From an uncultured Candidatus Saccharibacteria bacterium (lineage in GTDB: Bacteria > Patescibacteriota > Minisyncoccia > Phycocordibacterales > UBA9973), in the NCBI GenBank assembly GCA_964622505.1, contig CAZUQJ010000001.1, forward strand, positions 44,240 to 108,239: 64,000 nt of DNA, written 5' to 3'. The first letter of the stretch is position 1, and each line of letters opens with the position of its first letter. The notes below the pieces were generated by a model. It made no database searches and was not told where the DNA came from. It worked only from the letters and a program-made list of their open reading frames with translations. This document shows positions 1 to 9,383 of the stretch, in pieces. Position numbers and translations under genes: made by a program.

Positions 1-144
1 GATATTAAAAGTTTCTCAATAATGAAAAAGCACTACAAAGCATATGTAAACGGCTTCCCAGGTGCAAAGGAATTGAGAGTAAAATTAATGGAAACAAATA
101 ACGCAAAAGAAGTAGAAACCATAATAAAAGATTTCTTAGAATAG
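1..144 (+). CDS. C-terminal fragment of tRNA-dihydrouridine synthase (5' end outside window)
   Basis: Frame-1 translation DIKSFSIMKKHYKAYVNGFPGAKELRVKLMETNNAKEVETIIKDFLE* resembles the Dus C-terminal helical domain (GxPGAKELR motif); TAG stop at 142-144. Confidence 0.4.
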   Translation, partial: DIKSFSIMKKHYKAYVNGFPGAKELRVKLMETNNAKEVETIIKDFLE

Positions 145-264
145 TAAAATTGGACTTCGTAATTTATAAGGTTAGAATCATTTTGAACTTGGTATTCACT
201 AATAAGCCATAGTAGATTGACAAAAGCTTATATATATATTAGTATTTTAAAAAAATAGAATCCA

Positions 265-714
265 ATGAAAAGTGAAAATCCGTTACTTGAAAAACTTCGC
301 AAGGCCACTAACAAAGCTCAAGCAAAAGAAAAAACCAAAAATTTGCAATTGGAACAGTTTAATAAAGAAGAAACTGAGAATGATTTAAAAAACAAAGCCC
401 AAAATTTATATTTGGAATTCGTGACCAAAGAAAAGTTGACAGCTTTTGCAAATGAAAATCTTCACCAGTACCCTTTATTGTTTATTCATAATGATAAATA
501 TAGACCAAGAAAAAATAAAAAAACTGGTTATATATACCGTATTGATAAGCTTGGGGAGTTTCTGAGCGACATTCTGATTGAAAATGGTTTTGAGCCAAGT
601 GTTATGCGCGTTTCTGTTAATTCACGAACCGCTGAAATATCTTTAACGCAAAGAGAACATTGCTATAATGCGATGATTTCAGAGCCTGGATGGTATCTTG
701 GAATTGAGTGGTAA
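265..714 (+). CDS. hypothetical protein (Lys/Glu-rich N-terminus)
   Basis: 149-aa ORF followed by hairpin terminator; no recognisable family. Confidence 0.35.
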   Translation: MKSENPLLEKLRKATNKAQAKEKTKNLQLEQFNKEETENDLKNKAQNLYLEFVTKEKLTAFANENLHQYPLLFIHNDKYRPRKNKKTGYIYRIDKLGEFLSDILIENGFEPSVMRVSVNSRTAEISLTQREHCYNAMISEPGWYLGIEW

Positions 715-732
715 CTAATTTAGAAGATTTTA

Positions 733-762
733 AAAATCCCGTGCACACACGGGATTTTTTGT
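733..762 (+). terminator. Rho-independent terminator
   Basis: ATCCCGTG-cac-CACGGGAT stem followed by TTTTTT. Confidence 0.6.
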
Positions 763-946
763 TGGATGTGTAAATTGTGGATAAGTTTTTGGAGATTTAG
801 GATACTGTGCTATACTTACCTTTAATGTATATGGAAACAAAAAGCCCGATAAATCACACTCAAAAGCCGGTTTTTCGCTTCTGTATTTCTAATTTTAATA
901 ATTCTATTCCAGTCCCTAATATGGGGCTTTTATTTTAGTTAAATAT

Positions 947-2176
947 ATGACAATAATCGAAGGAATCATTGTGAATAAAAGTGAACAGATCCGAAAGCGG
1001 ATCGAGATTGATGATGTTACAGGATTAATTACAAAAGTTGGGGATCCTACTGGCGAGGCGGATATGGTGCTCAAAGATGAATTAATTTTCCCAGGATTTA
1101 TCGACTTGCATGTGCATGCTCGCGAAGATATAAGTGGTACACAAATGTATAAAGAAGATTTCCAAACAGCGGGCGAGGCTGCACTCAATGGAGGCGTAGT
1201 AGCATTTGCAGAAATGCCGAATAATCCTGTGCCTCCGGTAGATGATGAAAGTTATAATGCAAAAAAAGAATTGACCAAAAAATCTGCTGTAGAAATAATC
1301 CTCTACGCTGGCATCGGATCACAAACAAGTCCGCTTTCAAAAAATGTGCCGTACAAAGTCTTTATGGGGCAATCCATCGGTGACTTATTTTTCTCCACAC
1401 GCGAAGGTTTGGAAAATGCTCTGGCAAAATACAAAGGCTGTAATATCAGTTTCCACTGCGAGGACCCAAAGACCCTCAATGAATGTTGCGATGCAGATAC
1501 GCATGAACACAAGCGCCCACCGATGGCTGAAATATTGGCAGTAGATTTCGCCCTCGAGCTAATAGAGAAACATAATTTAAAAGGCAGAATATGTCATTGC
1601 TCGACAATGGAAGGTGTGAAGAAAATTATGGAAGCAAAAAAGCGTGGGGTAAATGTGACGGTGGAAGTTACCCCGCACCATTTATATTTTGACGAGACAA
1701 TGTTTACTGATAGTAATCACACATTATTTCAAGTGAACCCACCGATTAGACAAACAAAGGAGAATCGTTTGTACTTGATACAAGCACTCAAGAATGGCGA
1801 CATAGACCAACTCGGAACCGACCATGCACCACATACTATAGAGGAGAAGGAGAAAGGTATGTCGGGGCTCACACATCTGGATACTTTTGGAAACTGTGTA
1901 TCATGGCTGATAAAGGAGCATAATTTTACTCCACAAGAAATTGCACGAGTATGCTCGGAGAATCCAGCCAAATTTATAAATGAATTTACGGCGGGCAAGT
2001 ATGGAAAGATTGAAGTTGGGTATGTGGGTTCGTTCTCAATAATAGATATGAATAAACCGATCACAATCGAGAGTGCGAATTTAAAAACAAAATGTAAATG
2101 GTCGCCGTTTCTAGGAGTAGAATTCCCAGGGAGTACAGTTGCAATAATAATAAAGGGTAAAATTTATGCAAAATAA
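947..2176 (+). CDS. pyrC: dihydroorotase
   Basis: Cyclic amidohydrolase motifs (DLHVHAREDISG, AEMPNNPVPP, HCEDP...); followed by carA/carB. Confidence 0.85.
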   Translation: MTIIEGIIVNKSEQIRKRIEIDDVTGLITKVGDPTGEADMVLKDELIFPGFIDLHVHAREDISGTQMYKEDFQTAGEAALNGGVVAFAEMPNNPVPPVDDESYNAKKELTKKSAVEIILYAGIGSQTSPLSKNVPYKVFMGQSIGDLFFSTREGLENALAKYKGCNISFHCEDPKTLNECCDADTHEHKRPPMAEILAVDFALELIEKHNLKGRICHCSTMEGVKKIMEAKKRGVNVTVEVTPHHLYFDETMFTDSNHTLFQVNPPIRQTKENRLYLIQALKNGDIDQLGTDHAPHTIEEKEKGMSGLTHLDTFGNCVSWLIKEHNFTPQEIARVCSENPAKFINEFTAGKYGKIEVGYVGSFSIIDMNKPITIESANLKTKCKWSPFLGVEFPGSTVAIIIKGKIYAK

Positions 2177-3218
2177 AAAAACAAAATTACAATTTAAAGA
2201 CGGGAGTGTGTACGAGGGTGTAAGCTTCGGTGCTGAGCAATCTATCTCGGGTGAAGTAGTATTTGCTACAGGCATGGTGGGCTACCCCGAGGCGATTACT
2301 GATCCATCTTTTGCAGGGCAAATACTTGTAATGACTTACCCTTTGATTGGGAACTATGGTGTTCCGGACAAGAGTAAATGGGAATCTGAGAAAATCCAAA
2401 TTAGAGGTTTGGTTGTGTCGACTTACAACGAAACTCCATCTCACTCTACTTCTGTACAAACTTTAGCAGAGTGGCTCAAGTCAGAAAATATTCCCGGACT
2501 CGAGATAAAGGATACAAGAGCTCTTACTCAAAAACTCCGTATGGAAGGCTCCAAGCTCGGGAAGATTGTTTTTAATAATAATAAAATTAATTTTGAGGAT
2601 CCGAACGATAGGAATTTGGCAATGGAGGTCAGCACAAAAGAAATTAAAACTTACAATATAAAAGGCAAAAAGACTGTTATAGTTATAGATTGTGGTAATA
2701 AGGAAAATATAATAAAGAGATTAGTGGCACGTAATATGAAAGTAGTAGTAGTACCGTGGGATACAGATGTAATGAAGCTCGATATTAAATTTGATGCGGT
2801 GCTGATATCTAACGGTCCTGGTGATCCGAAAAAAGTGCAAGCAACTATAAAAAATGTGAAGAAAATTATTGCTAAAAAAATACCAACATTTGGAATATGT
2901 TTAGGCAACCAAATCTTGACGCTCGCTTGTGGTGGTACAACATACAAAATGAAATTTGGTCATCGTAGCCAGAATCAGCCAGTAGTCCTCTCTGGAACAA
3001 ACAGTTGTTACTTAACAACACAAAATCACGGCTTCGCTGTAAAGAAAATTCCCAAAGATTTCAAAGTCTGGTTTACAAATGCCAACGACAATACCAATGA
3101 AGGCATTATCCACAAAACTCTACCAATAATGAGTGTACAATTCCACCCTGAAGCAACCCCAGGCCCAAATGACACTGATTGGATATTTGATTACTTCTTT
3201 AAGAAAGCCAAAATATAA
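2166..3218 (+). CDS. carA: carbamoyl-phosphate synthase small (glutaminase) subunit
   Basis: Class-I amidotransferase catalytic Cys motif GICLGNQIL, HGFAV motif; overlaps pyrC stop, abuts carB. Confidence 0.9.
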   Translation: MQNKKTKLQFKDGSVYEGVSFGAEQSISGEVVFATGMVGYPEAITDPSFAGQILVMTYPLIGNYGVPDKSKWESEKIQIRGLVVSTYNETPSHSTSVQTLAEWLKSENIPGLEIKDTRALTQKLRMEGSKLGKIVFNNNKINFEDPNDRNLAMEVSTKEIKTYNIKGKKTVIVIDCGNKENIIKRLVARNMKVVVVPWDTDVMKLDIKFDAVLISNGPGDPKKVQATIKNVKKIIAKKIPTFGICLGNQILTLACGGTTYKMKFGHRSQNQPVVLSGTNSCYLTTQNHGFAVKKIPKDFKVWFTNANDNTNEGIIHKTLPIMSVQFHPEATPGPNDTDWIFDYFFKKAKI

Positions 3219-3219
3219 T

Positions 3220-6200
3220 ATGAAAAATACTACTTACAAAAAAATATTAGTACTCGGTTCAGGCGCTCTGAAGATTGGTGAAGCAGGGGAATTTGATTAT
3301 TCTGGAAGTCAGGCAATCAAGGCATTGAAAGAAGAAAAGATAAAAGTTATTTTAATCAATCCAAACATCGCTACATACCAAACTTCCAAAGATTTGGCTG
3401 ACGAAGTATACTTCCTACCTGTCAATGATTATTTCGTAGAGAAAGTAATTGCAAAAGAACGCCCAGATGGAATCATGCTTTCATTTGGAGGGCAAACAGC
3501 GCTCAACTGCGGACTACTACTTGAGTCACGTGGTATTTTGAAAAAGTACAAAGTGGCAGTACTTGGTAGTCCTGTAGCATCTATTGAGCTTACAGAAGAT
3601 CGGCAAATGTTTGCCGATCATTTACGCAAGCTTGGCGTTGCTGTCCCACCATCTGGAACTGCAACCAATTTTAAAGAAGCGGAAAAAATTGCAAACACAA
3701 TTGGATATCCACTTATGGTGCGCGCGGCATTTGCACTTGGTGGGCAGAAGTCAGGTGTAGCATACAATGCAAAAGATCTAAAAGAAATTGTCGATGGGGC
3801 CCTTGCTATATCGAACCAAGTCTTGATCGAGAAATATCTGCACCACTTTAAAGAAATAGAATACGAGGTAGTCCGCGACAAGTTCGACAACACAATTACT
3901 GTATGTAATATGGAAAACTTTGATCCGCTTGGTATCCATACCGGCGACTCAATCGTGATCGCGCCGAGTCAGACTTTATCAAACGATGAATATCATGGTT
4001 TGCGTGAGGTAAGTATCAAGATAGTAAAGAGCTTGAAGATAGTTGGTGAGTGTAATGTGCAGTATGCATTGAATCCAAATCCGAAAAACGGGGAGTTGGA
4101 CTACTACGTCATCGAAGTCAACGCACGCCTTTCACGCTCAAGTGCATTGGCAAGTAAAGCCACCGGGTATCCACTGGCGTATGTGGCTGCCAAATTGGCA
4201 CTCGGTAAGAGCTTGCTCGAAATCAAAAACAAAATTACCGAGGTGACTCAGAGCTTCTTTGAGCCGGCTCTCGACTATGTGGTGGTCAAGATGCCTCGTT
4301 GGGATCTGATCAAGTTCAAAGGAGCATATGAAGAGATTGGTAGCGCGATGAAGTCGGTGGGTGAGGTCATGGCCATAGGCCGAACATTTGAAGAAGCTCT
4401 ACAAAAAGCTGTCCGAATGCAATCAGGTAATGTGGAAAGCATTACAGACAATAACTTCAAAGACAAAAAGGAAATTACAAAATATCTATATACTCCAACT
4501 CCAAACAGACTTTTTGCAGTAGCAAATTCAATGCTTCAAGGTATGTCTGTGGATGCTGTTCACAAAATCACCGGTATTGATAAATGGTTCCTCTATCGAT
4601 TGGAAAATATTGTGCATATAGAACAGAATCTAAAGAAGAGTAAGAAATTGGACCATGATACAATGCTCAATCTAAAACAAACGGGGGCTTCGGATAAAAA
4701 GATCGGACAGTTGTGTGGCAAAACAGAATTTGAGATTCGCAAAGTGCGAAAGAATTTAAATATAATGCCAAGCGTTTTCCAGATTGATACGTTGGCTGGC
4801 GAAATTCCTGCACGTACAAACTATCTATACCTGACTTACCACGGTAGTCACCATGACGTGGCGCCACTTGGTGCCAATGCTGTAGCTGTGCTCGGTAGTG
4901 GGCCGTACCATATTGGATCTTCTGTTGAGTTCGACTGGTCATCTGTGAATGCAGCGCTTGCGCTCAAAAAGCATAAAAAGCAGTCAATTATTGTAAACTG
5001 CAATCCGGAGACTGTATCAACTGATTATGACATGTCCGACAGATTGTATTTTGAAAATATTTCTTTTGAAACTGTGGCAGATATTTATGAATTCGAGAAG
5101 GCACTTGGATTGATAATCTCTGTTGGAGGACAAAGGCCAAATAATTTGGCCAACAAACTAAATCGTGAAGGATATAATATTCTCGGTACAAAAGCCGAGG
5201 ACATTGATCGCGCAGAAGACCGCAACAAATTCTCGGCATTACTCGACAAGCTCGATATCGCTCAGCCAGAATGGCAAAGCTTTACCAATATCAAAGAAGC
5301 CGAGAAGTTCGCAAACAAAGAGGGCTACCCAGTGCTCGTGCGCCCATCTTATGTATTATCTGGAAGTGCGATGAATATTTGCTATAGCAAGGCCGAGCTT
5401 TATGACTTCGTTACCAAGGCTGCGGTTCTGTCCCCAGAATACCCGGTAACAATTTCCAAATTTATCGAGAATGCAAAAGAGCTTGAGTTCGATGCTGTCG
5501 CGCAAAAAGGGCAAGTAATGATTTATGGCATATCGGAGCATGTGGAGAATGCAGGAGTCCACTCTGGTGACGCGACTATAGTGTACCCAACACAGCGTGT
5601 ATATGCATCAACAGAATTCCAACTGCAAGAAATTTCCAAGAAAATTGCAAAAGAATTAAATATTACAGGTCCATTCAACATCCAATTTCTCGTGAAAGAC
5701 AATCGCCCTATGGTGATCGAGGTCAACGTCCGTGCGTCGCGCACATTCCCATTGCTTTCAAAAGCGATGGATGCCAATTTCCCCGAAATTGCAGTGGATT
5801 CATTTTTTGGACATGCTTCCAAACACGAATATGTTTATCCGAATAGTGTGGTGGTGAAGTCTTCACAATTCTCTTTCTCCCGACTCCTTGGCGCGGACCC
5901 AGTATTGCGCGTTGAAATGTCTTCGACTGGCGAGGTGGCCTGCTTTGGTAAAGATTACGACGAAGCCTTGCTCAAGTCAGTGCTATCTGCAAATAAATTT
6001 GATTTCAATAAAAAGGCTGTACTATTCTCACTCGGAGGACTTGTAAACAAAGCCAAGTTCCTCGAAGCTGCCAATTCAATGGCAATCCTCGGCTACAAAA
6101 TTTATGCGACAGATTCGACTGCGGAATTTTTCAAAAAGCACAACATCGATTGTCATGTGGTCAAAAAAGCTCACCAAGGTACTCCAAATGTCCTCGATAT

Positions 6201-6429
6201 TATCGATGGCAAAAAGGTAGCCTTTGTTGTAAACTTAAGTGATACAGTACACAAAGAGGGACACTCAGATAAAGTAATGACCGATGGCTATCGTATCCGC
6301 CGTGCAACAGTCGACAATCAGATCCCACTTTTTACCGATCTTCATTTAGCAAGAGCATTCGTCAAAGCTTTGGCCCATTACAATATTGATGATTTAGAAA
6401 TAAAATCTTATAAGGAGTATTTGAATTAA
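3220..6429 (+). CDS. carB: carbamoyl-phosphate synthase large subunit
   Basis: ATG at 3220 immediately after carA TAA (3216-3218); duplicated ATP-grasp halves (KILVLGSGALKIGEAGEFDYSG...; VLGSGPYHIGSSVEFDW...); ~1070 aa. Confidence 0.95.
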   Translation: MKNTTYKKILVLGSGALKIGEAGEFDYSGSQAIKALKEEKIKVILINPNIATYQTSKDLADEVYFLPVNDYFVEKVIAKERPDGIMLSFGGQTALNCGLLLESRGILKKYKVAVLGSPVASIELTEDRQMFADHLRKLGVAVPPSGTATNFKEAEKIANTIGYPLMVRAAFALGGQKSGVAYNAKDLKEIVDGALAISNQVLIEKYLHHFKEIEYEVVRDKFDNTITVCNMENFDPLGIHTGDSIVIAPSQTLSNDEYHGLREVSIKIVKSLKIVGECNVQYALNPNPKNGELDYYVIEVNARLSRSSALASKATGYPLAYVAAKLALGKSLLEIKNKITEVTQSFFEPALDYVVVKMPRWDLIKFKGAYEEIGSAMKSVGEVMAIGRTFEEALQKAVRMQSGNVESITDNNFKDKKEITKYLYTPTPNRLFAVANSMLQGMSVDAVHKITGIDKWFLYRLENIVHIEQNLKKSKKLDHDTMLNLKQTGASDKKIGQLCGKTEFEIRKVRKNLNIMPSVFQIDTLAGEIPARTNYLYLTYHGSHHDVAPLGANAVAVLGSGPYHIGSSVEFDWSSVNAALALKKHKKQSIIVNCNPETVSTDYDMSDRLYFENISFETVADIYEFEKALGLIISVGGQRPNNLANKLNREGYNILGTKAEDIDRAEDRNKFSALLDKLDIAQPEWQSFTNIKEAEKFANKEGYPVLVRPSYVLSGSAMNICYSKAELYDFVTKAAVLSPEYPVTISKFIENAKELEFDAVAQKGQVMIYGISEHVENAGVHSGDATIVYPTQRVYASTEFQLQEISKKIAKELNITGPFNIQFLVKDNRPMVIEVNVRASRTFPLLSKAMDANFPEIAVDSFFGHASKHEYVYPNSVVVKSSQFSFSRLLGADPVLRVEMSSTGEVACFGKDYDEALLKSVLSANKFDFNKKAVLFSLGGLVNKAKFLEAANSMAILGYKIYATDSTAEFFKKHNIDCHVVKKAHQGTPNVLDIIDGKKVAFVVNLSDTVHKEGHSDKVMTDGYRIRRATVDNQIPLFTDLHLARAFVKALAHYNIDDLEIKSYKEYLN

Positions 6430-6433
6430 AATA

Positions 6434-6958
6434 ATGAATAAAAAATTTAAAATAATTATTTTTTTATTGGGAATACTTCCTTTTCTCTATTTATTATTTG
6501 TATATTCTTCTTTTTTTTTCCGAATCGATGATAGATTGAGGATAAAGCAAGAAACTATTAGATTTCATAAAAATACAGTAGAATACAATTCTACTGTTGA
6601 TAAGATTTTGGAGAAAAATCCTGTTGAATATTGTGGAAAATCTCGTAATCGTACTCAAACTTATGTTGAAAATTATGGAGTCATAATAAACTGTGTACCT
6701 GAATATAAAAATCATGAAGAAGATCTAGACACAGGTATGTATATTATTTTTCCGTCTTGGTGGCAACCAGCTGCGGGTAGCATGGGAGGATGTTTTACGG
6801 GTTTATTTTGGAGTAATGCAAAAGTACCTGGATCATATGTGATGAGACAAGAAACAAGCGGAGTGCCTATAATTAAAAAAATTACTCAAAATTGGTATGC
6901 TTTTTCTTATGTTTCTATTTCAGAATGTAATTCAAAAAATAAACATCTTATTTTTTAG
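6434..6958 (+). CDS. hypothetical membrane/secreted protein (AT-rich, lineage-specific)
   Basis: 174-aa ORF with N-terminal hydrophobic segment; no family recognised; interrupts the pyrimidine cluster. Confidence 0.35.
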   Translation: MNKKFKIIIFLLGILPFLYLLFVYSSFFFRIDDRLRIKQETIRFHKNTVEYNSTVDKILEKNPVEYCGKSRNRTQTYVENYGVIINCVPEYKNHEEDLDTGMYIIFPSWWQPAAGSMGGCFTGLFWSNAKVPGSYVMRQETSGVPIIKKITQNWYAFSYVSISECNSKNKHLIF

Positions 6959-6974
6959 TAGTATTTTGTTATTC

Positions 6975-7004
6975 TCTTATTCGTGCGAATATGTGAATAA
7001 GAAT
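6975..7004. promoter_or_regulatory. palindromic operator-like site P1 (CTTATTCGTGCGAATA...GAATAAGAA) overlapping predicted -35 of the arsR-like gene
   Basis: Perfect inverted repeat TATTCG-tg-CGAATA nested within TCTTATTC...GAATAAGA; closely related copy at 7311-7343. Confidence 0.45.
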
Positions 7005-7024
7005 GCAGGTGGTATACTATTTAT

Positions 7025-7285
7025 ATGAAAGAGCAAGAGAAAATACTTAAGGCTTTGGCGAATCATCGTCGATTGCAAATTGTTAAATATATTAAAGAGC
7101 AAAAGCAGGCGACTGTGGGTGCTGTGGCGGGGCATATTAAATTGTCTTTTAAATCCACTTCCAAACATTTAATGGTTTTGCACAATGCAGGGATTTTGGA
7201 TAAAGAGCAAAAAGCGCTTTTGGTATTTTACTCTATATCCAAATCATTACCAAGAATCGCCAAGCAAATTATTGATGTAATTTAG
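7025..7285 (+). CDS. ArsR/SmtB-family HTH transcriptional regulator
   Basis: LKALANHRRLQIVKYI...ATVGAVAGHIKLSFKSTSKHLMVLHNAGIL is a canonical ArsR winged-HTH; extended -10 TGgTATACT (7010-7018) sits 6 nt before the ATG (leaderless). Confidence 0.7.
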   Translation: MKEQEKILKALANHRRLQIVKYIKEQKQATVGAVAGHIKLSFKSTSKHLMVLHNAGILDKEQKALLVFYSISKSLPRIAKQIIDVI

Positions 7286-7310
7286 TGATTTTCCGTGTTG
7301 ATTGTTTTAC

Positions 7311-7343
7311 TATTCGCTTATTCGTACGAATAAGCGAATAAGA
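7311..7343. promoter_or_regulatory. palindromic operator-like site P2 (TTCGCTTATTCGTACGAATAAGCGAA + GAATAAGAA) upstream of pyrB
   Basis: 26-bp perfect palindrome sharing the core CTTATTCGTrCGAATA...GAATAAGAA with P1. Confidence 0.45.
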
Positions 7344-7407
7344 AATTGTGAATGGATATTTTATTAAAATAGGTGTAAAATATAGGCTAGTTAATAATTA
7401 CAATTTT

Positions 7408-8337
7408 ATGCGTCACATACTAAACACAAATCAATTCAAAAAAGAAGACATTGAACAAATCTTTTCTACAATTCCAAAGATGGAGGAGTTGTGTGAGAAT
7501 TTGAAAAAGGGTACTCGTATCGAGCGTCCTCTTGAAGGCAAGATTATTGCTTGCGTATTCTTTGAGCCATCGACACGTACTCGGCTCTCTTTCGAGACAG
7601 CAAGTTTGCGACTCGGGGCAAAGGTGATCTCTGCCGAAAATGCTTCCGAGAATTCTTCGGCTCATAAAGGCGAAACTCTCGAGGATACTGCTCGGACGCT
7701 TTCGTGCTATGCCGATGCTATTGTGACTCGGCACTACCAAATGGGTGCGGCGGAATCTATGTCGCATTCTTCGACCGTACCGATTATCAATGCAGGCGAT
7801 GGGGCAAACCAGCACCCTTCACAAGGTTTGCTTGATTTATATACTATACAAAGTGAGCATGGGCGATTGGAGAATTTGAAAGTTGCGTTTGTTGGTGATG
7901 TACTCAACAGTCGTACACTTCGATCGCTTGTACCACTATTGATGCTATACCCAGGCAATACATTTTATTTTATCTCACCAAAGGAGCTTAAGCTCGATGA
8001 GAACTATAGGAAATTCCTACAAGATAACAATGTCAAATTTGAAGAGCTCGACAATCTCGACGGCACGCTTCCAGAAGTAGATGTGCTCTATATGACACGT
8101 GTACAAAAAGAACGATTTGCAAACGAGGCCGATTATGAAAAAGTAAAAGATTTGTTCCTACTAACACCAGAGCATGTTGCGCAATTGAAAGGCGACGCAA
8201 TCATAATGCACCCGCTCCCAAGAATAAATGAGATCGACCCCGAAATTGACAGTGATTCAAGAGCAGCCTACTTCCGCCAAGCCCAAAACGGCCTGTATGT
8301 CCGCATGGCATTACTACTTTATGTGTTTGGGTTATAG
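7408..8337 (+). CDS. pyrB: aspartate carbamoyltransferase catalytic subunit
   Basis: STRTRLSFE carbamoyl-phosphate-binding motif, HPLP motif; ATG at 7408 preferred over the GTG at 7348 listed in the ORF track. Confidence 0.9.
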   Translation: MRHILNTNQFKKEDIEQIFSTIPKMEELCENLKKGTRIERPLEGKIIACVFFEPSTRTRLSFETASLRLGAKVISAENASENSSAHKGETLEDTARTLSCYADAIVTRHYQMGAAESMSHSSTVPIINAGDGANQHPSQGLLDLYTIQSEHGRLENLKVAFVGDVLNSRTLRSLVPLLMLYPGNTFYFISPKELKLDENYRKFLQDNNVKFEELDNLDGTLPEVDVLYMTRVQKERFANEADYEKVKDLFLLTPEHVAQLKGDAIIMHPLPRINEIDPEIDSDSRAAYFRQAQNGLYVRMALLLYVFGL

Positions 8338-8340
8338 AAT

Positions 8341-8721
8341 ATGAAATTACATCATGTAGCTCTGACAATTAAAGATTTGAACATTTCGCTTCCGTTTTAT
8401 GAAAATAATTTTGGATTCAAGGAGGTGAATCGTTTTCGTCGTGATGATATGGGTGCTACAGGAGTAATGCTTGCAGGTGAAAATATTAATATAGAACTTT
8501 GGCAGTTTGATGTTTTTAAAGAGGGAGCAAAAGAGGATTTGTCGGTGGGTGGAATTAAACACATTGCATTTACAGTCGACGATGTCGAAGATTTGCATAA
8601 AAAATTTACTGATAAAGGTATTGTTTGTGGAAATATAAAAACTGGTGCAAGCGGTGGCATATACTTTTTCCTAAAAGACCCAGATGGAAATGATATTGAA
8701 ATCTATAAACCAAATAACTAA
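8341..8721 (+). CDS. VOC/glyoxalase-family protein
   Basis: MKLHHVALTIKDLNISLPFYENNFGF... typical glyoxalase/bleomycin-resistance fold signature. Confidence 0.65.
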   Translation: MKLHHVALTIKDLNISLPFYENNFGFKEVNRFRRDDMGATGVMLAGENINIELWQFDVFKEGAKEDLSVGGIKHIAFTVDDVEDLHKKFTDKGIVCGNIKTGASGGIYFFLKDPDGNDIEIYKPNN

Positions 8722-8740
8722 TGCATAAATTTAAATTGTA

Positions 8741-8774
8741 AAAAGGTCCGGGGATTTCTCGCCGGACCTTTTTG
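8741..8774. terminator. bidirectional Rho-independent terminator between convergent genes
   Basis: GGTCCGG-N10-CCGGACC flanked by A-run and T-run. Confidence 0.6.
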
Positions 8775-8777
8775 ACT

Positions 8778-9383
8778 TTATTTTTTCTCTTCTTTATTTT
8801 CGTAAAAATATTTATGAACATCAGCCTCATACCATGCTGGTGGTACTTTTTTCTGGAACCAAACACTGTTCTGGAAATTATCTAGATCAGTAGCAATTTT
8901 CCAAGCAAATGTTAACAAGAAAATGACTGAAAAAACAGAGAAAGCACCAATAGAAATATCTTGTTCATAATTAAAAGATAATGCAAGAAATGCAAGAAAG
9001 AAAGAAGGTGCCCCTATCAATAAATGTATTTTAATAGGTAATTGTTCGTCGCGATAAGTTAAAAATTCCCTCATCTCATTTTGAACAACAGATCTTGATA
9101 TTTTTTGATACTGGTAGAAAACAGAGTTTACTGCCATAAATGCAAATAAAGCATATCCACTTCCCGCCATGGGAGCGATCATGAATAGAATTACTTCATT
9201 TGCATGTTTACTGAAGTGAATATCGAGGGGATATAATATATATCTCCAAAATAACATAAATATTATTGCGATAAGCATTGATTCTAGTACGATAGGAGAG
9301 TGCTTTTTTATTAAGTTCCAACTTCTGTTCTCAGGTATAAAATTTGGGGTGGGTATTTTTGGGGTACTTTTTCTATCTTTCAT
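8778..9383 (-). CDS. hypothetical polytopic membrane protein
   Basis: 201-aa ORF with about 4 hydrophobic helices; good terminator downstream. Confidence 0.45.
   Translation of the reverse strand: MKDRKSTPKIPTPNFIPENRSWNLIKKHSPIVLESMLIAIIFMLFWRYILYPLDIHFSKHANEVILFMIAPMAGSGYALFAFMAVNSVFYQYQKISRSVVQNEMREFLTYRDEQLPIKIHLLIGAPSFFLAFLALSFNYEQDISIGAFSVFSVIFLLTFAWKIATDLDNFQNSVWFQKKVPPAWYEADVHKYFYENKEEKK

Follow-up and report, generated by a model that had tools for sequence, protein, structure and literature searches.

In a 64,000-nt stretch of DNA (the window) on contig CAZUQJ010000001.1 from an uncultured Candidatus Saccharibacteria bacterium, a gene for an 86-aa ArsR/SmtB-type winged-helix protein (7025–7285, + strand) lies within a string of pyrimidine genes, between two near-identical palindromes, P1 (6964–7003) and P2 (7305–7344), which are putative operators and have no strand of their own. 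We propose, with a probability of about 0.6, that the protein is an autorepressor of the ArsR type that lacks a sensor and has an operator on each side of its gene plus a few extra sites, and that gene and palindromes form a portable, self-regulating cassette rather than a dedicated regulator of the pyrimidine genes. Every functional step in this proposal, from binding through repression to the role of P2, is one that we infer from sequence. Sites stand on both sides of the small regulator gene in 66 of the 84 homologous loci, far more often than chance would allow, and the cassette turns up in about 200 species of Patescibacteria irrespective of the genes around it. The minimal protein, presumably a dimer, would most likely bind palindromes of 30–40 bp with the layout ATTC-N4-ATTC-N4-GAAT-N4-GAAT; on P1 it would cover the -35/spacer region of its own leaderless, extended -10 promoter and most likely repress itself. 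P2 would be the second conserved half of the self-contained cassette and most likely a second anchor for the same protein, through cooperative binding with P1, as a roadblock that shields the cassette from transcription on either side, or in both ways. P2 is unlikely to be an operator dedicated to pyrB; when bound, about 62 nt upstream of the predicted pyrB start, it may affect pyrB as a local side effect only. The protein probably has a small and functionally mixed set of further targets, since the same palindrome recurs a few times elsewhere in related genomes, between co-directional or convergent genes.

The palindromes, the protein and its promoter

P1 and P2 form a 40-nt direct repeat with 85% identity, and each copy is itself palindromic; in P2 the arms 7306–7325 and 7326–7345 are 90% complementary. 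The layout is one of four tetramers at 8-bp spacing, ATTC-N4-ATTC-N4-GAAT-N4-GAAT, written out as T ATTC TCTT ATTC GTGC GAAT ATGT GAAT A in P1 (6970–6999; core ATTCGTGCGAAT at 6979–6990) and T ATTC GCTT ATTC GTAC GAAT AAGC GAAT A in P2 (core ATTCGTACGAAT at 7320–7331), where it makes a perfect 14-2-14 palindrome, TATTCGCTTATTCG TA CGAATAAGCGAATA, at 7311–7340. The P2 centre lies 40.5 nt past the stop codon of the regulator, and its right end 63 nt before the pyrB ATG (7408). Both palindromes quoted in an earlier note on this DNA are present, at slightly different coordinates (P1 string 6974–7005, P2 string 7315–7346). That note described an inverted repeat plus a third half-site; the repeat is real but larger than described, the third half-site being the outer right tetramer, and the outer left tetramer (TATTC at 6970 and 7311) had been overlooked. 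The motif is not scattered through the window: ATTCNNNNGAAT, of the ATTC-N4-GAAT type, occurs twice in 64 kb, at P1 and P2, and these are also the sole matches to TTATTCGNNCGAATAA with up to two mismatches, for which shuffling gives an expectation of 0.43. The count of TTATTCGNNCGAATAA matches is weak evidence by itself, because 7 of 100 shuffles of the window contain two or more.

The assignment of the 86-aa protein to the ArsR family is borne out by a Pfam HTH_5 match (29.3 bits against a cutoff of 22), the generic NCBIfam model NF033788 (58.8 against 55) and an ArsR/SmtB fold. No NCBIfam equivalog model reaches its cutoff for this protein, including those for HlyU-, PagR-, NolR-, BigR-, SqrR- and YgaV-type members. 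The AlphaFold2 model (predicted local distance difference test score 94) has the order α1-α2-α3-αR-β1-β2-α5, with helices at residues 3–12, 14–26, 31–38, 42–54 and 77–85 and strands at 58–63 and 66–71. Foldseek template modelling scores are 0.81–0.84 to HlyU, PagR, CadC, NolR and CzrA, within a range of 0.79–0.84 across ArsR/SmtB structures, and a profile of 35 homologues run against solved structures matches HlyU, Lmo1102, PagR, CzrA, NolR, YgaV, BigR and SmtB, HlyU being the best (E 6e-13, 31% identity). The window protein has no cysteine, no metal-site residues and no α5-type His/Asp/Glu cluster in its C-terminal helix; the lone invariant histidine, H48, sits in the recognition helix, and the invariant residues of the family are found in α1 and in the recognition helix, LSFKSTS(K/R)HL. 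The protein is thus a member of the ArsR/SmtB fold family that falls outside all known sensing subgroups, and the palindromic form of its sites would imply at least a dimer. A relation to Csa3 was considered and rejected, the similarity reported by PADLOC to the Csa3 helix-turn-helix (HTH) being at domain level only.

The regulator gene is preceded by an extended -10 element, TGgTATACT (7010–7018, + strand), whose hexamer ends 6 nt before the ATG (7025), as had been noted earlier, and P1 does overlap the -35/spacer region of this promoter, its centre lying 28.5 nt upstream of the start of the hexamer and at about -40.5 relative to the predicted transcription start. In most of the homologous loci TGnTAnnnT begins 12–14 nt before the ATG, which argues for leaderless mRNAs. 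Many other genes in the compared loci also appear leaderless, with an extended -10 element at 12–14 nt before the ATG. The distance from site centre to hexamer has a sharp peak at 28.5 nt (20 loci, the window among them), which is kept even where the leader is long; a second class at 8.5 nt (8 loci) has the -10 element inside the right arm, and a third lies at about 20 nt. All three classes would place the protein on the core promoter, and autorepression is the simplest reading of this arrangement. The autoregulation suggested by the earlier note is therefore well supported as an inference, because the geometry of site, -10 element and ATG is conserved across many loci.

Cassettes and solitary palindromes across Patescibacteria

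For comparison we used 84 non-redundant homologous loci from Patescibacteria, the candidate phyla radiation (CPR), with the site generalised to ATTC-N4-GAAT plus arms; L-numbers (L001 etc.) label the homologous loci and contig stretches compared with the window. Because the loose site definition (score ≥7) gives 0.4 chance matches per 64 kb, site densities were recomputed at stricter thresholds. An upstream site is present in 74 of the 84 loci, a downstream site in 73 and both in 66, and several of the loci lacking a site are contig ends. In the first three relatives the regulator lies in each case between two palindromes with the core ATTCGTACGAAT, and its neighbours are dprA and a VanY-type peptidase in one, a YgjP-like gene and small hypotheticals in another, and a MIP channel and Fic/RhuM in the third. 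Across the set the flanking genes belong to 77 (downstream) and 86 (upstream) different Pfam families, the commonest downstream family accounting for just 6 of 79 genes. Apart from the window, pyrB follows the regulator only in the closest relative, L088 (regulator 80% identical); in L087 (74% identical) the next gene is mreB. The downstream site shows no preferred distance to any extended -10 element in the homologous loci, its left arm overlaps the stop codon in 13 of them, and it is kept before convergent genes, namely an FtsJ-type methyltransferase (L014), CTP synthase (L031) and a sugar transferase (L034). The flanking copies are exact reverse complements in the Nomurabacteria group and direct in other clades, so that a reading of the palindromes as terminal inverted repeats, which was also considered, fails generally.

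Agreement at arm positions 10–11 is 0.53 and 0.72 within a site, 0.55 and 0.75 between the two sites of one locus, and 0.28 and 0.37 between unrelated loci. That it is equal within and between the sites of a locus points to a shared, lineage-specific binding protein and not to selection for a hairpin. The protein columns most tied to arm type are those of the wing (residues 56–68) and K/R47 of the recognition helix, an association that is only suggestive since the statistic ignores phylogeny. Paralogues that are 32–33% identical (L066, L032) are flanked by their own palindrome type, with core ATTCTGCAGAAT and arms CATTCYMAC: in L066 the sites are at 8942 and 9348 around a gene at about 9044–9343, and in L032, where two paralogue cassettes stand back to back, at 7573 and about 7925 around a gene at 7634–7888 on the minus strand. 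Palindromes of this ATTCTGCAGAAT family are also found in L033, L121 and L135. At the level of sequence, these paralogue-specific palindromes are the strongest evidence that the sites follow the protein. A second copy of the regulator in L060, 55% identical, is likewise bracketed by sites.

The close family is restricted to Patescibacteria, chiefly Paceibacteria-type lineages that include Nomura-, Zambryski-, Taylor-, Jorgensen-, Lipton- and Doudnabacteria. It comprises 43 clusters at 90% identity, with 194 matches among GTDB species representatives and 451 representatives of 50%-identity clusters at E≤1e-10 among 1.84 billion; no relative of the protein was found in the viral contigs searched. 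One metagenomic locus, L094, has five palindromes (2385, 2564, 2657, 3166 and 5159) around a single ArsR gene (2706–2954), together with a weak second ArsR-like match at 1109–1321. The top-scoring representative, P0164, has 179 aa and matches the family in two stretches, as if two copies of the 86-aa domain had been fused in tandem.

Palindromes also occur away from the regulator gene. When metagenome contigs were scanned for exact matches to the window-type site, ATTCGCTTATTCGYRCGAATAAGCGAAT, at least 120 stretches with at least 126 exact sites were matched; among the matches listed, to which the counts that follow refer, 27 sites lie within 200 nt of an ArsR homologue and 99 are solitary, or about 4 solitary exact copies per cassette. 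At least 500 nt are visible on both sides of 65 of the 99, and deduplication leaves at least 59 distinct solitary contexts. In 34 of these 59 the adjoining genes are co-directional, in 6 convergent and in none divergent, and 18 sites lie inside open reading frames (ORFs) that are probably over-extended. A cassette and a distant solitary copy occur together on one contig (L129 and L136). In about 15 contexts the site ends 4–16 nt before a real ATG, with an A-rich spacer; other solitary sites are right behind a stop codon or in mid-spacer. That solitary sites always precede a start codon was considered and rejected, this being so in about a quarter only; an ORF of at least 60 aa begins no more than 25 nt away in 28 of the 59 contexts, compared with 40% at random positions. 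The 28.5-nt promoter geometry was seen in none of them, nor was any preferred distance to an extended -10 element.

The genes downstream of solitary palindromes are mixed. pyrF and glutamate dehydrogenase each occur there in at least five loci of one clade, and the others include Dus, Cas1, GrpE, UvrC, SOD, NifU, RecO, MazE, KsgA, pyrroline-5-carboxylate reductase and DUF456. In L107 a perfect 32-nt copy (4535–4566) ends 10 nt before the ATG (4577) of pyrF, encoding orotidine monophosphate decarboxylase, and in L125 another (8909–8940) ends 7 nt before the gdh ATG (8948); both spacers are A-rich, with no Shine-Dalgarno sequence and no space for a -10 element. Around the cassettes of species representatives, strict extra sites are clustered within 4 kb, with 0 in 415 kb at 4–8.5 kb and a chance rate of about zero, and the genes that they bracket are unrelated (YgjV, DUF1428, NUDIX, Fic, NYN, TGT).

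The carB–pyrB junction

In the window the pyrimidine genes run on the + strand from a dihydroorotase-like (pyrC-like) gene (947–2176) through carA (2166–3218) and carB (about 3223–6429) to pyrB (7408–8337), which encodes the 309-aa catalytic chain of aspartate carbamoyltransferase and is followed by a glyoxalase-family gene on the same strand. Between carB and P1 lies a gene for a 174-aa protein (6434–6958, +) with an N-terminal hydrophobic segment and no family match, which is part of the variable insert. The locus L090 is close to the window (PyrB 87%, CarB 91% and PyrC 86% identical) and has the same gene order, Dus-pyrC-carA-carB-pyrB-glyoxalase-dnaX, with only 16 nt between the carB stop codon and the pyrB ATG (junction 6984–7001). 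Its 15 kb lack the regulator, the 174-aa gene, any palindrome and also the pyrB promoter of the window. Comparison of the junction sequences makes about 6430–7392 (+) of the window extra relative to L090, and because this close relative lacks the whole stretch, the cassette is probably an insertion into the pyr operon here. A position between carB and pyrB, whose conservation the earlier note had proposed to check, is not conserved: besides the absence in L090, pyrB comes directly after pyrC in L092, again without a site. At the carB–pyrB junction L089 and L091 carry different extra genes. L089 reads carB, a 233-aa gene, a 129-aa gene and then the ArsR gene; L091 reads carB, a 236-aa gene, a 121-aa gene, site, ArsR, site, a 246-aa gene on the opposite strand, site and pyrB, with site cores at 5744, 6094 and 6910. 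The 246-aa gene (6119–6859, minus strand; no known family) is bracketed by two identical copies, the duplication spanning exactly the 32-nt palindrome, and has its own leaderless extended -10 element (TGATACAAT) 6 nt before the ATG. The product of the 121-aa gene (5357–5722), which directly precedes the L091 cassette, is weakly similar to nucleoside 2-deoxyribosyltransferase (E 6e-4, short of the Pfam cutoff) and would be a further neighbour linked to nucleotide metabolism.

A candidate pyrB promoter, TGGATA-17-TAAAAT (7353–7381, +), lies inside the inserted DNA; it is a consensus match only, with a putative function, and its -10 hexamer is 50.5 nt downstream of the P2 centre. A Shine-Dalgarno sequence is missing before pyrB in the window (7382–7407) and in relatives (L090, 6985–7000). 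L088 and L091 share the promoter motif GGTGTA(A/G)AAT, and in L091 this motif and the site next to pyrB are orthologous to the P2 region of the window, so that site and promoter are kept in three genomes; the distance from the site to the predicted -10 hexamer varies, at 50.5, 51.5 and 71.5 nt. Control of pyrB from P2 is possible, if weakly supported by these comparisons. The earlier proposal of P2 as a pyrB operator is not borne out in that form, as the second palindrome is kept whatever lies downstream, has no set spacing to a promoter and is retained with convergent genes. A wider control of the pyrimidine operon fares no better: the neighbours of the cassette are unrelated, a close relative is without the regulator, and motif scans of the 64 kb found no palindrome before pyrC-carAB. 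The pyr link in the window reflects where a variable stretch happens to lie; with pyrB and pyrF as two among about 45 otherwise unrelated contexts, it is no more than a hint.

Alternatives and known systems

Several observations weigh against a sensor-less autorepressor with two operators. On a promoter without a -35 element, a site centred at about -40.5 stands where class II activators classically bind, so repression is unproven for the 28.5-nt class. The spacing of the two sites, 279–467 bp within the 66 loci, lies in the range over which DNA can loop but shows no helical phasing (best period 12.05 bp, R 0.24, permutation p 0.16; R 0.06 at 10.5 bp) and hence does nothing to favour a loop that depends on phase. 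Above 300 bp phasing is weak in loops, and looping is compatible with its absence. The protein shows no evident ligand-binding features. The solitary sites, with no fixed relation to promoter or start codon and with none divergent against six convergent among the contexts listed, are unusual for a classical repressor regulon, and their near-identity over 28–32 nt across contexts exceeds that of typical operator sets, although part of it arises because the search demanded exact matches.

On another reading the palindromes would be primarily mobile or recombination elements, akin to repetitive extragenic palindromic (REP) sequences, miniature inverted-repeat transposable elements or attC/dif sites, with an outside recombinase moving the units and the ArsR protein as passenger or secondary binder. 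Near-identical copies of 28–32 nt in 59 or more unrelated contexts, variable presence of the insert at carB|pyrB, the exactly 32-nt palindrome duplicated on both sides of the extra gene in L091, and the bracketing of accessory genes (the 246-aa gene in L091, Fic in L006 and L047, YgjV in L085, DUF1428 in L048, NUDIX in L025) all fit such a role, as do the exact reverse complements of the Nomurabacteria group and the lack of sites in divergent regions among the contexts listed. We nevertheless consider it unlikely. Neither in the cassette nor regularly adjoining it, among the top 25 neighbour families listed, is there a transposase or recombinase, and with integrons and Xer systems in mind no integrase family appears in that list either; the protein carries no catalytic domain, copies are few (about 4 solitary ones per cassette among the matches listed), and none was found in viral contigs. 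Site arms covary with protein lineage and paralogues have their own site type, the distance from upstream site to promoter is fixed, and the orientation of the flanking copies is direct in some clades and inverted in others. The cassette site is also unlike what we take to be the attC and dif consensus sequences. A mobile or recombination role may, in any case, coexist with the binding role. We likewise give little chance to a REPtron-like system without a transposase, in which a winged-helix protein would be encoded between two copies of its own palindrome, and that palindrome would mark the boundaries of gene units in CPR genomes (as a protein-dependent roadblock or insulator of transcription, as a hotspot for exchange of accessory genes, or both), with the pyr insertion as one example.

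That the ArsR protein is a dedicated pyrimidine regulator, responding to a pyrimidine-related signal by repressing pyrB and further pyr genes through P2-type operators and so standing in for PyrR-type attenuation, seems to us quite improbable. Such a role would fit the retention of site and promoter next to pyrB in the window, L088 and L091 (in L091 despite the intervening 246-aa gene), the palindrome identical to the window type 10 nt before the pyrF ATG in at least five loci, and CTP synthase as neighbour of the cassette in two loci. It would also fit a window whose positions 1–9000 give no Rfam match at E≤1, pyr attenuators and PyrR-type RNA elements included. The neighbours of the cassette are however unrelated in about 80 species (77 and 86 Pfam families), pyrB as a neighbour is limited to the closest relatives of the window, and solitary sites stand before gdh, sod, uvrC, grpE, cas1, ksgA and nifU, among about 40 unrelated genes. 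Within the pyr genes themselves, pyrC-carAB has no site, the carB–pyrB junction of L090 is intact without the regulator and the distance from site to pyrB promoter is variable, while the protein has nothing evident with which to bind a ligand.

Very improbable is an RNA-level element, with the palindromes as transcript hairpins (terminators, stabilisers or processing sites) that mark transcript ends: sites often follow stop codons or separate convergent genes, and the folding energy is -17 kcal/mol (z -4.7) for P2 and -25 kcal/mol for the downstream site of L006, with a slight excess of within-site complementarity at outer positions 15–18, but hairpin strength is not conserved (-4 kcal/mol, z -0.7, for the downstream site of L001), many sites have non-complementary arms, no U-tract follows the site, the upstream site precedes the gene's own promoter, and covariation between the two sites of a locus is as strong as within a site. 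Canonical GC-rich terminators (hairpin plus T-run) moreover lie directly upstream of solitary palindromes in L144, L112 and L192, so that the palindrome is not needed as a terminator there. A hairpin or terminator was thus rejected as a general explanation, folding energy not being conserved and the U-tract being absent.

The cassette resembles SmtB, CzrA and CadC, with their 12-2-12 operators, in the fold, in a small, presumably dimeric winged-helix protein, in a long imperfect inverted repeat over its own promoter and in putative operators with inner and outer sub-sites. It differs from them in a protein without metal residues or cysteine, in putative operators built of ATTC/GAAT tetramers (13-2-13), in the second site behind the gene and in the lack of linkage here to resistance or efflux genes. 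HlyU, PagR, NolR, BigR/SqrR and YgaV are the best sequence and structure matches, with non-metal, diverse targets and, in PagR, a similar size; HlyU, BigR and SqrR sense via cysteine pairs, whereas the cassette protein has none, and bracketing by two operators is, to our knowledge, not known for any of this group. For the two sites there are precedents of cooperative looping and roadblock in lambda cI, which lies between OL and OR, and in lacI, whose 3' end is at O3, with O1. In these systems a repressor gene has operators of one specificity on its two sides, separated by a few hundred bp to kb, but the HTH families are unrelated to ArsR and the outer operators control divergent or downstream promoters, whereas the downstream site of the cassette has no consistent promoter partner and no helical phasing was found. 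REPtrons, made of REP sequences and a REP-associated tyrosine transposase (RAYT), are alike in that a gene has a copy of a short palindrome on each side, with more copies dispersed intergenically, mostly between co-directional or convergent genes. They are unlike the cassette in that RAYT is an HUH Y1 transposase, and here there is only an 86-aa winged helix, and in their tens to hundreds of copies per genome against about 4 solitary copies per cassette among the listed metagenome matches. AspA, the archaeal pNOB8 partition protein, is also an ArsR-like winged helix of about 90 aa that binds a palindrome beside its own gene; its sequence similarity is weak (E 6e-3), and it belongs to a plasmid aspA-parB-parA operon, while the cassette has no accompanying partition genes.

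Autoregulated ArsR proteins with inverted-repeat operators are already well known. Unusual here are a second site that is conserved behind the gene, palindromes that are specific to each paralogue, and near-identical copies that lie dispersed yet avoid regions with divergent promoters. In the searchable literature we found no description of the family, the motif, the arrangement, an ArsR protein together with pyr genes, or relevant CPR regulators, and the regulator family appears undescribed. Control of transcription in CPR organisms, which are not culturable alone, is almost unexplored, and this compact, widespread family is one in which site, promoter and specificity variants can be read from sequence. 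The sites before the promoter and behind the stop codon, and the solitary copies that avoid divergent promoters, hint at a use of ArsR proteins beyond ligand-controlled repression. The locus also calls for caution, as a regulator embedded in an operon need not control that operon; here the context suggests arrival within an insertion.

The pyrimidine genes into which the cassette is set deserve mention in their own right. This CPR genome encodes a dihydroorotase, both carbamoyl-phosphate synthase chains and aspartate carbamoyltransferase (947–8337), which is notable given that CPR organisms are often described as without nucleotide synthesis. Close PyrB homologues are common in Nomurabacteria/Paceibacterota metagenome-assembled genomes.

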